From a virus (Duplodnaviria; Heunggongvirae; Uroviricota; Caudoviricetes): a stretch of DNA of 50,985 bases. Positions 1,815 to 42,754 of this stretch are shown here, one piece after another (within the stretch, counting starts at the first letter, position 1; the number at the start of each line of letters is the position of its first letter). Made by a program: the position numbers and the translations under genes. The DNA lies in the IMG/VR virus record IMGVR_UViG_2721755720_000003, one strand, 5' to 3'. The notes under the pieces were generated by a model. The model made no database searches. It was not told the origin of the DNA and saw nothing but the letters and a program-made list of their open reading frames with translations.

Positions 1815-4800
1815 TATGCAAGCCTCACAATATAGTTAAATGCGATGTTTTTGACGGTGTTTTCCGCGTTACCAGCAGCGTTAACGGTGATGGTGTGTCC
1901 ATGTGAACCAATCGCAACGGAGTGCGTATGAGCACCAATACCGACAGTATGCGCGTGTGCACCTGCAGATGCTGCTGTGCCGGACAGTGAGTGGCTATGA
2001 TTACCATCTGTACTGGTATTAGCTAACCACCCCGTAGACATACCTACTGAGCCTTGTACACCCCAGGTATTTTGACCTGAGCTTGTATAACCATATTGAT
2101 AAGTATCTTTAAAAACACTGGGGTTAAATCGACGGCCATCTCTATGGCTGTGATTACCAGCTGCATTCGTGCTGCCACTTAAACTATGGGTATGCGCACC
2201 AGTGTTATTCGTGGATTTAGTGCCGTAATCAAACGACGATGTGGTTTTCGTCCCCAAATCCGTACTGGATGCGCTGGCGCTGTGGGTATGCGATTTAATG
2301 CCGTCCTGTTCCTGAGACAATACGGCCCGACCACTGGCAGGTTTGCCCTTAATCGTCCAGCCACGCATATCAGGGATCACGCCTGACGGATAAGCCGCTG
2401 CAAGTTTCGGGTATGCAGATTTGTCAAAAGTCTGCCCCTGCATCAGGGCATAGCCAGACGGAACGGTATCTGATGGCCACGGGATTGGTGCACCGACTGG
2501 ATAAAACTCTGCAGGAGGATGAGCCGAGGTGTAAAGCTGCGCCCACGGCGACCAGTTTGCGTCGGTCGTATCCCGTCGTGAACGAATAAATGCCGGAGCA
2601 TGAGCACCGCTTGTACCACTCCAGCCGATGAGTAACTCACCTTCGCCAACGGCTGTCATCCCTTTCAGGTGAATGATATTTCCATACGCTGTTGGATATC
2701 CGTTGTTATACACCTCGTATAACTCAAGACCTGTTGCCCCCTGCGTATTGTCTGTCAGCGCGGTTACCCGACCTTTTGAAGACAGATTAACTGATGATAC
2801 TGCTGTTCCACCTGACGGTAATGCCCCGATCTCTGATGCCGTTGGCTTATTTCTGGAGTTATAGTCCCTTCGCCAGCCAGGTGAATAATCTGTTCCGTGA
2901 TTAATATAGGTAAACTGGGCGTTAGTTGTTCCGCCACCAGTGGAGGTAGTCGGTGTGGTAATGCGGATCGTCATCGCTGACTTTATCCCCATTACTTCAA
3001 TGACAGCTCCTGCGAGATGAATATTACCGCAGCCAGTATCAGTAATGATTTTATTATTGCCATAAGACCAGGAACCCTTGCACATCCAGTATGGATGGTT
3101 AAATGCTCCCTGAGAATCCAGCCACTCGATAAACTGTGCAGTCGTCCAGTCTCCTGTTGTTGTGCTTACTGACCCACCGAAGGCACGGCTGGCACCAATA
3201 TTTTTCGTAAAGGTGTCTTTGCCAGGGATATCCGCACCGTTCTTATCTTTCTGCAGACGTTTCTCAGCATTGTCATTGGCTGCTTTTACTGCCTTTGGCG
3301 TTGCTGCCAGCGTTTCAGACGTGCTGTTGGTCGCGCTGCTTAGCTGGACTATCCCTTTCTGTGCTGTCGTTGCATCCTGTGCGGTGTATTTCCCGTCAGC
3401 CAGGTCATACGCGGCCTTAACTGCTTTTGGCGTTGCCGCCAGTGACTCGGAAGTGCTGTTGGTCGCACTGCTGAGCTGTACTATCCCCTTTTTCGTCGTG
3501 CTCGCATCCTCAAGCGCCACGGCGGATGCAATATCCTCTGCCCGTTTTGCCGCTGTCTCAGCGCGCGTTGCCGCGGATTCCGCCGTACTTTTGCTCTGTG
3601 CTGCCGCCGTCGCACTGCCAGCTGCCTCTGTCGCCTTCGTGGATGCTGTCGTGGCGCTGCCCTTCGCTGCTGACGCTTGTCTGGTCGCCTCATCTTTTGA
3701 AGCAGACGCAGATGATGCCGATGACGCCGCCGAACTGGCGGACGATGCGGCAGCCGTTTTTGAGGATTCTGCGCTGGTTTCCGACGCTTTCGCGTTCGTT
3801 TCGGATGTCTTCGCTGCGGAAGCAGACCTCGCTGCTGCTCTGGCCTGTTCAGTGGCTTCGCCAGCCTTCGTTGTGGCTGTTGAAGCAGACGATGCGGCGC
3901 TTTCTGCCGATTTTCCGGCGGCGGTGGCACTGGCTGAGGCCTGCCCGGCACTTGTTGACGCGGCACTGGCAGACGACGCAGCCGCTGTTTTTGAGCCTGC
4001 CGCAGCCGAGGCGCTCTGTCCCGCTGCCGTTTCAGAAGACCTGGCGTTCGTCTCTGACGTTTTTGCCGCCTTCGCGGAATTTCCTGCCGCTGTTGCCGAG
4101 GAAGCTGCGCTACTGGCGCTCGAGGATGCGTTCGTTTCTGATGATTTTGCCGCCTCTTTTGAAGCCGCCGCATCCCGGGCTGAGCTGGCAGCTTCTGACG
4201 CTTTCGTGGTCGCGGTGGATGCAGAAGTGGCTGCTGATTGTTGTGACGCTGCCGCATTCGTTTCTGACGTTTTCGCGGCACTGGCACTGGTAGCTGCCGC
4301 GCTTTTTGAGGACTCTGCAGCGGCAGCACTTTTTGATGCTTCAGTGGCCTTTGTTGATGCCGTTCCTGCGCTGGAAGACGCTGACTGAGCCGACGAAGCG
4401 GCCTGTCCGGCTGACGTGCTGGCTGCGCGTGCTGAGCCTGTAGCATCAGTCGCATGGGTTGCCGCCTCACGGGCAGATGTGCCGGCATCGCCGGCTGACT
4501 TCTTCGCGACTGCCGTGTTCTGTGCCACCACGGACGCGTTACGCGCCACCTCTTCCACCATCAGTTCAAAACGGCGCAGTGCCTCCGGACGGGCATCATC
4601 CTCCGTCATGGCACCGAGAAAATCATTCAGCGTACCGGGTCGGGAATCTTCATACACGGTGATGGTCCCGGCATGTGACGGCGGGAATCCCTCCACCAAC
4701 AGAATAACGCTGTACTGCCCGTACTCAACGTCCATGCTGTAACGCCCGGCTTCATCCGGATTTTCTGAGGCCAGCGTGTTCACCACCACCGTGGTACTGT

Positions 4801-39037: not shown

Positions 39038-39230
39038 TCAACACTCCCACAACAAAAAGCCACAGCAATCAAAAAATGAGCACGCAGAATCAAAATGCTC
39101 TCTAATCGTAACGCATTTTGAGATTTTTGATACGTTTTTTTGGGATTATGTAACGCCAAATGGTCATTTTGTGTCAGAAAAATAAATCTTAGTACCGAGA
39201 ATATGTAGCTTCCATCCTTCATCGTTCTAT

Positions 39231-39677: not shown

Positions 39678-40439
39678 TCACTTTTCCGATGCAACATGGC
39701 GGGAAGAATCAGTAATCTGTCGTACAATATCCCTGTGCTTGTTCAACTCACGCAGCGCGGCGCAGACACGCTCCCACTTCTGGAGATGATTTTTCGCCCG
39801 ACGCAGTTCGCGGTTTGCCATATGCAGTGATGGTAAAACCAGGTCATCCGCTCGCGTTTCAGTAAACGATGGCAGCGACTGCACAATGTCCGCCACAGTT
39901 TCTGTTTTAATATCTTCCTGTGTTGCAGCCTCCTGTACTGGTAACGCAACACCTGCGGTCTGAGGAAAGGCCTTACCATCAGTTTCCGCTACCGATGCTG
40001 CTTTCGGCTCTGCTGGTAAATTATCGCCCGGTATGCAGTAACGAAATTTACCGCCCTGATTTACGCGAATCAGACGACCTTTGCTGATTGCCATTGCCAG
40101 CGTTGAAGCCACTTTGCGTGATGTGGTACCAAACAATGTAGCCAGCTCATCAGCCGTTTGTGGTCCTCGTTGTTCAATCGTCGCGGTTAAATCGCACTCT
40201 GAGATTTTCGCTACTGTTGCTGTGGTGATTTCTTCCGGCAGTTCTGCCTGCGCTGGCTGTTCCTGCTGAATATTGTTATCAGCCACACGCCAGGTGTACG
40301 CGCTTTTATCAACAAAACCAGCCTTTTTCAGTTCCCATAGTTCGTTCAGCACTTCTTCACGACTGATATCAAGTCGCGCAGCAAGTTCTATGGATGTGGC
40401 TTTTCCCATTGCTTTCAGTGCGTCAAAAACAGTCTCCAT
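39678..40439 (-). CDS. Hypothetical protein with N-terminal winged-helix-like domain
   Basis: Start chosen at [13 protein letters not shown]… (GGGAGA RBS) rather than the upstream ORF-track start. Confidence 0.45.
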
Positions 40440-40461: not shown

Positions 40462-41208
40462 TTACTTCGCAATTCCTGGCTGGACGACATTCGGACGCCA
40501 GCTCTCCCAGTTAAAATTCACCCATCGCCCGCCGTTCATGGTCATGCGATCCATAATCCGCTCGCCGAGCAATGTTTTCATGGCCTCATAGTTCAGGTTT
40601 GTCAGCATCCCCACGCTGCGCATCGACGCTGTCCGGCGATCAACAATCTGGTGCAGTACCACCTGCTCGTTTTTCGTCTCGCGCTGAATGCCAATTTCAT
40701 CAAGAACCAGCAGATCCACTTCGCATAGTTCCCGCAAAAATTTTTCGCCTGACTGCCCATCGTCATAGCTGGCGTGCAGGGCACTCATAACATCAGCCAC
40801 GGTAACCACAATCACTGTCTGACCGTCTTTCAGCAGGCGATTCCCGATAGCTGCCGCTAAGTGGTTCTTCCCGGTACCAGGTTTTCCGCTGAACGCAAAA
40901 TTTGTACACCCGGTCATCAGTTCATCAGCGATGGATTTCGCCTGACTCAACGCGTATCGCTGCCCTTCGTTCTGCACCTGGTAATTCGAAAACGAGCATT
41001 TGCGGTGCAATGGCTGGATGCCAGAGCGATTCAGAATTTTTTCCACCCGCAACTGACGATTCTGACGGTTGATCTCCTCACAACGTTTCTGGCCTTCGGA
41101 AAGTTGCCACTCGCGCCACTCCGCTACCGTTTTGAATGGGGCGGTTACATGTGGCGGGGCCAGTCTGCGGATACGTTCAAGAATGCCGCCTGCCGCAATA
41201 TTTTTCAT
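40462..41208 (-). CDS. ydaV: DnaC/IstB-family helicase loader ATPase (YdaV-like replication protein)
   Basis: 248 aa; Walker [16 protein letters not shown]; Walker B LLVLDEIG. Confidence 0.85.
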
Positions 41209-41214
41209 GGTCAG

Positions 41215-42003
41215 TTACCCCCTGAAGCCTGGCGGGATCGCACTATCCGGTAACGAGACGGTGTTAACCTGTCGGAGTAACGTCTCAGGTCGAACACCTT
41301 TTGGCGCGAACAAGCCCTGGTATTCATTGGCGATGCTGTGTCGAATCACCTGCTCAGGTGAAAAACCCTGCTGGCGGAATTTTTCCAGCTCCCGTATCGC
41401 CCCGTTAGCGCCCTGCTCCGTTCGAATCGGTTTTCGCAATGCCTGCCTGAACTGAACCCACTCATGCCAGAGTGTTTCCGGCAACCAGTCAGGCAGCTCG
41501 ATAGCCTCCGGTTCGAATTTTTTAGACGCTCGTTTTTGGCGAGGGGGATTTAGGGGGAGATAAGTATTTATATCTTCCTCTTTCTCTTCCTCTGGTAACG
41601 CTTTTTGATCCGTTTTTGTAACGCTGGCAGCGTTACCTTTTCGTTTCAGTTCTCGTATTTTTGTTACTCTCTCGTTTGTAACCGCCCGTTTTTTAGAGCT
41701 TTTCCCGTTATGGCGCTCAAAGTTAGGAAGCGACAACACACCATTAGTTTCGACCAGCCATCCAACCTGAATTAACGCATCAGCAAAACCAGCCATAAAA
41801 GTGATGCGATCTATTGCACTTTTTGTAACGCCGCGAGCGTTACACTCTGCGTTACCGTCTATCATTTGTTGATCCGCCCATGCCCAGAAGCGAATGACTT
41901 TCCCTAATGCGGCATCTGGATCAATATTCAGAATCTCAGCAAGCCTGAATATTTCCGGCTTATCCGGCGTAATAACTTCGAGCTTTATCCAGTTTGAAGC
42001 CAT
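41215..42003 (-). CDS. ydaU: Replication initiation protein (YdaU-like, O-analog)
   Basis: 262 aa immediately upstream of the DnaC-like gene; contains palindromic repeats in its DNA. Confidence 0.65.
   Translation of the reverse strand: MASNWIKLEVITPDKPEIFRLAEILNIDPDAALGKVIRFWAWADQQMIDGNAECNARGVTKSAIDRITFMAGFADALIQVGWLVETNGVLSLPNFERHNGKSSKKRAVTNERVTKIRELKRKGNAASVTKTDQKALPEEEKEEDINTYLPLNPPRQKRASKKFEPEAIELPDWLPETLWHEWVQFRQALRKPIRTEQGANGAIRELEKFRQQGFSPEQVIRHSIANEYQGLFAPKGVRPETLLRQVNTVSLPDSAIPPGFRG
41618..41637. repeat. Palindrome TGTAACGC-N5-GCGTTAC (copy 1, inside ydaU)
   Basis: Perfect 7-bp arms; one of three copies spaced ~200 bp apart. Confidence 0.6.
41824..41844. repeat. Palindrome TGTAACGC-N5-GCGTTACA (copy 2, inside ydaU)
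   Basis: Perfect 7-bp arms; extra GCGTTACC half-site 5 bp downstream. Confidence 0.6.
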
Positions 42004-42015
42004 TTGTTTTCACCT

Positions 42016-42036
42016 TGTAACGCTCGCAGCGTTACA
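42016..42036. repeat. Palindrome TGTAACGC-N5-GCGTTACA (copy 3, just upstream of the ydaU start)
   Basis: Perfect 7-bp arms in the ydaT-ydaU intergenic region. Confidence 0.6.
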
Positions 42037-42080
42037 TTTAACTGATACCGAACAAAACAGTTCGGTACGATTAATTTCAA

Positions 42081-42503
42081 TCAATGCACTACGACAGAAT
42101 CGCTAGGAGAACCGCCGCCGCTGAAATGTGCTTTACGGTAAACGGCCTGGACTGCATCATCATGCGCATCAATTGCCGTACTCAGTGCATCCTGTGCCGC
42201 CAGTAATGCACGGCGTTCCAGGGTATCGAAGATGCAGAGTCGGTGACGCAGCTCGCGAGGAAGAATTGCCAGAACCGCAGGGATCAGTTTCTGAATTTTT
42301 TCCCTTTGCGCATTCGTTTCACCTTTCAACCAACGATGATAGATATTCTGCTGATTGTTCCAGTCCTTGCCTGGTACCAGGGGCAATTCGCCGCCCCCCT
42401 GGCGCAGATATTCTTCAGTAATTGCGTTAGCGACCCACGCCTGCCCTTTTTCGGCTGCCAGGGCTAACAACACTGATTCGATGTGCTCATGCTTGATTTT
42501 CAT
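42081..42503 (-). CDS. ydaT: YdaT-like protein (reported toxic product of the Rac immunity region)
   Basis: 140 aa; directly downstream of the Cro-like gene, same operon. Confidence 0.65.
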   Translation of the reverse strand: MKIKHEHIESVLLALAAEKGQAWVANAITEEYLRQGGGELPLVPGKDWNNQQNIYHRWLKGETNAQREKIQKLIPAVLAILPRELRHRLCIFDTLERRALLAAQDALSTAIDAHDDAVQAVYRKAHFSGGGSPSDSVVVH

Positions 42504-42754
42504 GAATCAACTCCCATCAGCTTTTTCGTAGTAGTTTTATTTCTGCCAATAGTTAAAATTGCATCGGCAGAAAATAATCCGTTTGATGCATGAGCGATTT
42601 TTTCAGCGTAATTTGTTTCGCCGGTATATTCTGTGCGAGGCAATTTTCCGTTATCCATCCATTTGTAGATTGCTCTTTGGCTGACACCACAAACGTCGGC
42701 CACAACAGAAACGCGAACAGTTTTGATTACATCTTCAAGTGTTTTCTGGTTCAT
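42500..42754 (-). CDS. ydaS: Cro-like HTH regulator (YdaS-like)
   Basis: 84 aa from the ATG at 42754 (GAGGGTG RBS); HTH VADVCGVSQRAIYKW; divergent from the repressor gene. Confidence 0.7.
   Translation of the reverse strand: MNQKTLEDVIKTVRVSVVADVCGVSQRAIYKWMDNGKLPRTEYTGETNYAEKIAHASNGLFSADAILTIGRNKTTTKKLMGVDS

Follow-up and report, generated by a model that had tools for sequence, protein, structure and literature searches.

Palindromic GTAACGC sites in and upstream of a ydaU-like prophage gene as probable binding sites of the encoded replication initiator

Introduction

Do repeated palindromes at a prophage replication gene mark the origin at which the encoded initiator acts, or are they the operators of some other protein? 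The question is raised by IMG/VR record IMGVR_UViG_2721755720_000003, a 50,985-bp stretch of tailed-phage DNA (the window, by which we mean that whole stretch), where GTAACGC-N5-GCGTTAC palindromes occur both within a ydaU-like gene and just upstream of it. A first-pass annotation had described three evenly spaced copies as a candidate origin or regulator array, and had put forward YdaT, a proposed CII analogue encoded just upstream, as a possible binder. From comparison of the locus with its relatives, we consider it likely that the prophage encodes the protein that recognises these palindromes, namely its own replication initiator, and that they mark its origin of replication.

Results

Three perfect palindromes at the initiator gene

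We scanned the whole window for GTAACGC-N5-GCGTTAC, allowing up to two mismatches. Exactly three matches were found, each with no mismatch and all located in or just upstream of the ydaU-like gene. Shuffled versions of the window gave a mean of 0.09 matches, and none of 100 shuffles reached three, which bears out the earlier view that the repeat is too long and regular to be due to chance. The three palindromes are real and not an artefact; their coordinates agree within 1 nt with those first reported. The additional half-sites that had been placed at about 41596 and 41850 are GTAACGC heptamers at 41595–41601 (plus strand) and 41849–41855 (minus strand). Two palindromes lie within the coding sequence and the third, site 0, lies 14–32 nt 5′ of the ATG, directly before the Shine–Dalgarno sequence AAGGTGA. 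The gene and its sites are as follows:

41215–42003, minus strand: ydaU-like initiator gene, 262 amino acids, with an N-terminal domain (residues 1 to about 120), a linker and a C-terminal half
41618–41636: site 2, GTAACGC-TGGCA-GCGTTAC, perfect palindrome in the linker-coding part of the initiator gene (residues 123–128, GNAASVT)
41825–41843: site 1, GTAACGC-CGCGA-GCGTTAC, perfect palindrome in the region coding for the N-terminal domain (residues 54–60, CNARGVT)
42017–42035: site 0, GTAACGC-TCGCA-GCGTTAC, perfect palindrome in the 77-bp ydaT–ydaU spacer, stopping 1 nt short of the Shine–Dalgarno sequence
41595–41601, minus strand: extra half-site, GCGTTAC on the gene strand, encoding the family-wide 'A-L-P' peptide; the last half-site before a polypurine tract
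41849–41855, minus strand: extra GTAACGC half-site on the gene strand, 12 nt upstream of site 1

The palindromes at 41825 and 42017 can be extended to 21 bp (TGTAACGC...GCGTTACA), and the 5-nt spacers of the three copies show no palindromy of their own. The half-site at 41849–41855 arose through a four-codon insertion (ECNA). Neighbouring palindromes are 207 and 192 bp apart from centre to centre, so that the description 'evenly spaced' holds for the window; it does not hold as a rule for the family, where sites 1 and 2 may be anything between 184 and 259 bp apart and only Enterobacterales have the upstream copy.

The sites accompany the N-terminal domain of the initiator

Relatives of the N-terminal domain were found in 6,390 representative clusters (50% identity) at E ≤1e-3. 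The genomic set comprised 74 loci of 34–96% amino acid identity from Enterobacterales, Pseudomonas, Burkholderiales, Planctomycetota and Verrucomicrobiota. Counted from the start codon, the motif is found in most of these loci a first time at +157, +160 or +169 and a second time at +343 to +400, with freely varying spacers. Site 1 is kept in nearly all relatives, and of 164 distinct homologous genes most have site 2 at the corresponding position (+346 to +408). Site 0 (−23 to −35) is kept in Escherichia coli, Pantoea, Serratia and Winslowiella, where the flanks cannot be aligned and the upstream genes differ.

The association also holds when it is approached from the motif. Viral contigs scanned for the exact motif alone yielded 120 stretches, 100 of which encode the N-terminal domain, and 165 of 187 viral copies fall at −35 to −23, +148 to +174 or +346 to +450. 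Approximately 450 kb of flanking genomic DNA outside the gene contained two matches only, each with two mismatches. The isolated phage vB_EcoS-673R7 encodes an N-terminal domain 100% identical to that of the window and carries the three sites at the same spacing, with no further copies in 37.8 kb; other named phages with the module include TL-2011b and Xanthomonas phage CP2.

In the 40 loci with full flanks, the initiator is the only gene common to all (40/40), the next being a generic helix-turn-helix repressor (22/40). Since only the initiator is shared throughout, the simplest interpretation would have the N-terminal domain binding the sites in its own gene.

Two records in the plasmid collection contain the module, one of them mosaic and uninformative, the other a circular phage genome. 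The 'plasmid' of Pusillimonas sp. T7-7 (L203; NC_015459.1; 41,205 bp, circular) is in fact the complete genome of a lambdoid siphophage, with genes for integrase, terminase, capsid and tail. For replication it encodes only an initiator of the present family and a DnaC-like ATPase. The record represents a phage-plasmid or else a prophage that had excised and was captured in the assembly.

YdaT recognises a different box

If the palindromes were instead operators of an immunity-region regulator (YdaT, YdaS or RacR), the position of ydaT directly upstream in the window would be readily understood, and a YdaT tetramer could bridge dyads about 200 bp apart (PMC11879457, PMC9986795). The sequence that YdaT is known to bind is a different one. 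In Rac, the footprints of YdaT cover ATGATT-N6-AATCAA at the start codon of ydaT and also operators between racR and ydaS (Wons et al. 2025, PMC11879457), and the CP-933P protein binds TTGATT-N6-AATCAA (PMC11879457). The window contains a perfect copy of this box, TTGATTTTCATGAATCAA, at 42493–42510. Furthermore, the YdaT of E. coli K-12's Rac prophage (locus L001) is 94% identical to that of the window, and K-12 Rac has no GTAACGC palindrome, even when three mismatches are allowed. Conversely, the palindromes persist without ydaT in TL-2011b, CP2 and most of the distant loci. We therefore rejected YdaT as the palindrome binder, and control by any of the three immunity regulators appears extremely improbable. 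The GTAACGC sites do not co-vary with ydaT.

Of the two interpretations offered in the first-pass annotation, comparative data strongly support that of an origin or initiator-binding array within an O-like initiator gene: the motif travels with the N-terminal domain across phyla, shows DNA-level selection and forms an array beside an A+T-rich tract at site 2. The other, CII-type (YdaT) sites, is not supported by them.

A second inverted repeat resembling the YdaT box, TTGATTGAAATTAATCGT, occurs with one mismatch at 42067–42084 (minus strand). It overlaps the stop codon of ydaT, the perfect box being 426 bp away. It has no counterpart in K-12 Rac, and could be a second looping site for the YdaT tetramer.

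Selection acts on the DNA rather than on the peptide, and an RNA stem is unlikely

At site 1 the gene strand reads GGT AAC GCN NNN NGC GTT ACN, which specifies G-N-A-x-S-V-T. We compared codon choice at this site in 70 non-redundant genes with background codon usage. GGT accounted for 77% of its position (20% in the background), AAC for 100% (61%), AGC for 100% (22%) and GTT for 96% (28%), with p-values from 1e-11 to 7e-25 that overstate independence, the genes being related. The pattern persists in genes with a third-position G+C content (GC3) above 0.7, and synonymous sites should be saturated at the distances found within the family. At site 2 the same DNA is read in two frames, as x-N-A-x-S-V-T in 95 genes and as V-T-x-x-A-L in 28, and site 0 is non-coding. 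Taken together, the fixed synonymous codons, the use of two frames and the non-coding copy indicate selection on DNA and not on the peptide.

These data bear on the suggestion that the motif is a by-product of a repeated G-N-A-x-S-V-T peptide, which is nearly invariant at residues 50–60, or else the target of a conserved host factor. Synonymous positions fixed far beyond background usage, the second frame at site 2 and the non-coding site 0 all argue against the peptide, and a host factor would need to be shared across Proteobacteria, Planctomycetota and Verrucomicrobiota and to have switched specificity together with a clade that uses GTCACG. We accordingly give hardly any weight to either version.

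Variation between loci provides a second line of evidence. The TAACG/CGTTA core is nearly invariant across the family. Compensation takes one form only, a replacement of A·T by C·G at arm positions 3 and 17, which affects both sites of a locus together; it converts Asn-AAC to His-CAC and is matched by a synonymous change from GTT to GTG. The codon pairs observed are AAC/GTT (52), CAC/GTG (6) and AAC/GTC (only 2). The variant arms GTCACGC/GCGTGAC, CTAACGC/GCGTTAG and GTTACGC/GCGTAAC each occur at both intragenic sites of the same locus, and the remaining arm variation consists of GG, CC or CA mismatches with no wobble pairs. We also looked for residues that determine the A-to-C switch in the half-site. 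Discriminating columns were found, which are confounded by clade structure, and several of them are themselves translations of the sites.

A role as RNA or single-stranded DNA hairpins, acting in mRNA stability, translation control, antisense termination or primosome assembly, has several points in its favour: each palindrome offers a stem of 7–9 bp, the RNA of the ydaT–ydaU spacer folds better than shuffled sequences (z = −3.3), terminator-like scores are obtained for site 2 and a neighbouring hairpin, on the antisense (plus) strand only, and the C-terminal halves of relatives resemble DnaT. Mere pairing does not account for an arm sequence that is itself invariant across phyla. Mismatches of the non-wobble kind, a single type of compensatory change and the many half-sites that are direct repeats 11–13 nt apart, and so unable to form hairpins, are likewise unfavourable, and we regard a hairpin function as very unlikely. 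The invariant core, the paired arm change, the non-wobble mismatches and the direct repeats point instead to a symmetric DNA-binding protein. On the comparative sequence evidence, then, the sites are non-random, co-inherited with the N-terminal domain and subject to DNA-level selection on a symmetric sequence.

A hairpin with an 8-bp stem, TACCGAAC-N6-GTTCGGTA, separates ydaT from site 0 at 42046–42067; on the plus (antisense) strand it is followed by CGATTAATTT and gives a terminator-like score. It could serve as the terminator of an antisense RNA similar to oop, or else act as an RNA element on the sense strand.

A half-site array abuts a polypurine tract at site 2

Throughout the family, the site 2 region usually contains three to six half-sites spaced 11–13 nt from start to start; GTAACG units, one to four in number, come first, and after them stand between one and three CGTTAC units. 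At least three exact hexamers were present between +300 and +480 in 35 of 63 genes, compared with 0.18 expected by chance. In GTAACG-type loci the last half-site encodes 'A-L-P' (Leu in 39 and Pro in 35 of 42). In the GTCACG-type clade this is replaced by 'V-T' (GC GTG AC), because GCG TGA C in the A-L-P frame would create a stop codon.

The last half-site is located 4–8 nt before a polypurine tract, typically AGAGAAGAGAAGAGAAG, in 30 loci. A purine run of at least 18 nt was found in 30 of the 63 genes, and the exact sequence AGAGAAGAGAAG in 30. Across 45 loci, the segment from +20 to +60 nt after site 2 has an A+T content of 63–64%, compared with a background of 44%, and is 79–85% purine; no comparable tract follows site 1 in these loci. 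In the window, site 2 and the extra half-site occupy residues 123–136 of 262, in the middle of the gene, and are followed by this tract:

41560–41593, minus strand: A+T-rich tract, polypurine on the gene strand; on the plus strand a pure pyrimidine run of 20 nt (41574–41593) and ATAAGTATTTATAT (41560–41573)

We regard 41560–41593 as a candidate DNA unwinding element.

Gene control or replication

The initiator might bind these sites solely for gene control, with autorepression at site 0 and intragenic roadblocks at the others, the origin being elsewhere. The close approach of site 0 to the Shine–Dalgarno sequence fits such a role, as does the precedent of iteron-plasmid Rep dimers, which repress from inverted repeats (PMC4857107). 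Clusters far from the initiator gene, described below, add to this. Against it, the best-conserved and most elaborate cluster is the one in the linker region beside the A+T-rich polypurine tract, a classical origin layout, and in K-12 Rac the corresponding stretch of the linker is occupied by another repeat array. A promoter scan found no sigma-70-like site around site 0 and none overlapping any palindrome. Regulation and origin function are moreover not mutually exclusive. On balance, purely regulatory binding seems unlikely to us, and an origin at the initiator gene remains the reading we prefer.

The distal clusters occur in phages CP2 (L199; 5976–6017 and 34142–34184) and Usme (L202; 42584–42625 and 26978–27020), 6–8 kb from the initiator gene. 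In each, a GTAACGC-N5-GCGTTAC palindrome precedes a pair of direct CGTTAC units, which are spaced by about 12 nt. They are conserved between the two phages, one cluster being intergenic and the other covering the start codon of a leftward early gene (ORF30). The initiator therefore probably has regulatory or secondary-origin targets as well.

Several observations weigh against the interpretation of the palindromes as an initiator-bound origin. At site 2 of the window the array is minimal, with no more than three half-sites. No origin signal emerged from cumulative GC skew in three complete phage genomes, although skew is uninformative here because transcription direction dominates it. The distance between sites 1 and 2 (modes 207, 209, 216 and 219) shows no helical phasing, and isolated dyads about 200 bp apart are unmatched in lambda ori. 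Both site 0, beside the ribosome-binding site, and the distal clusters of CP2 and Usme, at a gene start and in an intergenic region, fit regulation at least as well as replication. The gene for the homologue in Salmonella phage epsilon15 (32% identity) has no palindrome, and several relatives from Verrucomicrobiota also have no motif; the epsilon15 case means that the motif is not universal in the most distant relatives. Finally, searches on the motif, YdaU, DUF1376 and oriJ found no paper describing the motif, and no experimental report of binding or origin activity was found for any family member.

In six Verrucomicrobiota loci (L033, L035, L036, L037, L039 and L053), site 1 is replaced by the non-palindromic CAAACGATTTAAACGTTAC, and GTAACGCTTCAAATGTTTC lies about 47 nt before the start codon, which amounts to the same half-site in another arrangement.

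The initiator gene and its exchanged cassette

The window protein matches PHROG 2509, 'replication initiation protein' (E 5e-88); its only match of the O type is to PHROG 678, 'O-like', over residues 76–236. From residue 139 onward, and only there, it is 81% identical in amino acid sequence to K-12 YdaU; its N-terminal 138 residues are unrelated to the K-12 protein. DUF1376 (PF07120) matches K-12 YdaU with 92 bits and gives no match to the window protein and its homologues even at E ≤1. No Pfam family, those of lambda O included, was found for the N-terminal domain of the window initiator or of 22 N-terminal homologues, and sequence searches found neither an NCBIfam family nor a solved PDB relative for this domain. 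Structure prediction suggests that the domain is winged-helix-like, with the residues encoded by site 1 in a low-confidence loop (residues 51–60, mean predicted local distance difference test score 57).

RefSeq annotates the window protein as 'hypothetical protein', many records showing it in two pieces, or as 'YdaU family replication initiator'. We take the latter label to come from the shared C-terminal half, the N-terminal domain not being DUF1376. The C-terminal partners of the N-terminal domain vary, and include a DnaT-like domain, DUF1627 and the YdaU C-terminal half.

The minus strand carries a ydaS/cro-like gene, ydaT, the ydaU-like initiator gene and the DnaC-like ydaV, with a racR-like repressor gene divergent from them. 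The neighbours and the segment that differs from K-12 Rac are:

40462–41208, minus strand: ydaV-like gene for a DnaC/IstB-type helicase loader, directly downstream of the initiator gene (PF01695, E 9e-20; PF00308, E 9e-9)
42081–42503, minus strand: ydaT, just upstream of the initiator gene
41589–42082: 494-bp specificity cassette lacking homology to K-12 Rac at the DNA level, holding site 0, the N-terminal coding region and all half-sites

The ydaV-like product is the presumed partner of the C-terminal domain of the initiator. One edge of the cassette is at the ydaT stop codon, where the second YdaT-like box is also found, and the other is 6 bp past the last half-site. Outside these edges, DNA identity to K-12 Rac is 92.5% (42509–42083) and 95.3% (41588–40400). 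A non-homologous cassette between conserved flanks is the lambdoid pattern, in which the N-terminal domain and its sites are exchanged as a unit. The cassette is carried by 686 of 5,426 complete E. coli genomes (13%).

GTAACGC heptamers outside the cassette number nine, against approximately five expected, which is not significant. Three further heptamers on the plus strand, at 39108–39114, 39150–39156 and 39941–39947, span about 830 bp in a ydaW-like region 1.6–2.5 kb downstream of the initiator gene.

In K-12 Rac, the linker-coding segment of ydaU contains about five AGATGTTCAAAC-like repeats, with spacings of 33, 33 and 12 nt, and an inverted copy. They are located at 4472–4590 of L001 (NC_000913.3), corresponding to K-12 positions of about 1421471–1421589, and an A-rich tract follows them. 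These repeats are a candidate for the core of oriJ, the classical Rac origin; a sequence-level mapping of oriJ, or its placement at the AGATGTTCAAAC repeats, was not found in the accessible literature.

Discussion

A working model

Our results suggest a scheme in which the N-terminal winged-helix-like domain would recognise the 6–7 bp half-site (G)TAACG(C), and in which two opposed half-sites, 12–13 bp from start to start, would constitute one palindrome bound by a two-fold-symmetric dimer. Judging from the anatomy of the locus, the origin core would lie in the linker-coding segment and comprise site 2 (41618–41636), where the opposed half-sites would meet, the half-site at 41595–41601 and the tract at 41560–41593. 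Bound initiator would open the tract, and its C-terminal domain would recruit the DnaC-like YdaV together with the host helicase. More speculatively, sites 1 and 0 could load extra dimers that loop to or pair with the origin, throttle initiator expression, or do both. By analogy with the Rep proteins of iteron plasmids, these isolated dyads may serve looping or handcuffing as well as autoregulation, site 0 being a candidate for either an autoregulatory operator or a third origin site. The distal clusters in CP2 and Usme may be secondary origins or regulatory targets.

An origin embedded in an initiator gene is a known kind of element. The family, the motif, its conservation across phyla, the interlocking with coding sequence and the dispersed layout appear to be undescribed in the searchable literature. 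A broader proposal, which we advance tentatively and would not be surprised to see fail, is that this large initiator family (about 6,400 clusters) has 'self-encoding' origins whose dispersed layout forms a looped or bipartite origin with built-in autoregulation, rather than a tandem O-some of the lambda type. It is conceivable, if doubtful, that interlocking of the recognition sequence with the codons of the DNA-binding domain and linker has frozen (G)TAACG(C) from E. coli to Planctomycetota. The layout in question has a lone dyad separated by about 200 bp from convergent half-sites in an array with a GA tract, supplemented in some phages by further distal clusters.

Should this broader proposal hold, GTAACG arrays would provide a sequence-only predictor of origins in thousands of phages and prophages. 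For common Rac-like prophages, found in 13% of complete E. coli genomes, the locus offers a testable location and sequence logic for the origin, and it does so too for related phages from many phyla, in which the initiator domain is assigned to no annotated family. The locus is also an unusually clear case of a protein-binding site kept inside the coding sequence of its probable binder, as seen from the fixed synonymous codons, the use of two frames and the compensatory arm change that forces Asn to His. In addition, the analysis corrects a tempting misassignment of the sites to YdaT and explains the mosaic break-points in ydaU as those of an origin-specificity cassette.

Comparison with known systems

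The repeats of lambda ori each have internal dyad symmetry. In lambda, iterons and an A+T-rich tract lie in the middle of gene O (PMC7466680), and the candidate initiator sites of the window, with their adjacent A+T-rich tract, likewise lie in the middle of the initiator gene. As in lambda, the N-terminal part and the sites are exchanged together as one specificity module, the C-terminal part presumably has as its partner the loader encoded downstream, and the gene order is cro-like, cII-like, initiator, loader. Unlike lambda, with its four 19-bp iterons, the window has a unit of a 6–7 bp half-site with a phasing of about 12 nt, and the N-terminal domain has no match to the lambda O families in Pfam. 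Extra isolated dyads are present about 200 bp upstream, in the region coding for the folded domain, and in enterics also upstream of the gene. Conservation across phyla, and not rapid divergence, characterises the sequence of the sites.

Rep proteins of iteron plasmids bind as dimers to inverted-repeat operators near their own gene, for autorepression or handcuffing, and as monomers to direct iterons at the origin (PMC4857107). The present system would resemble those of pPS10 RepA, F RepE and R6K pi in that site 2 has, in relatives, arrays of direct half-sites and that the inverted repeats of sites 0 and 1 stand alone, and in the predicted use of one sequence in two arrangements by a winged-helix-like initiator.

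With respect to the operators of YdaT and other CII-type proteins, the likeness consists in inverted repeats within coding DNA of the same operon and in a tetramer that can bridge distant sites. The YdaT operators differ in motif (TTGATT-N6-AATCAA) and in location, at the ydaT start and in the racR–ydaS spacer.

Rac of K-12 is known to carry an origin, oriJ (PMC3945230). Its YdaU is encoded at the same locus, shares the C-terminal half and is followed by the same ydaV, with about 95% identity in the flanking DNA, and a repeat array, of AGATGTTCAAAC in K-12, stands at the equivalent linker position. The two differ in their unrelated N-terminal domains, DUF1376 in K-12 and no such family in the window, and in the equally unrelated repeats that accompany them.

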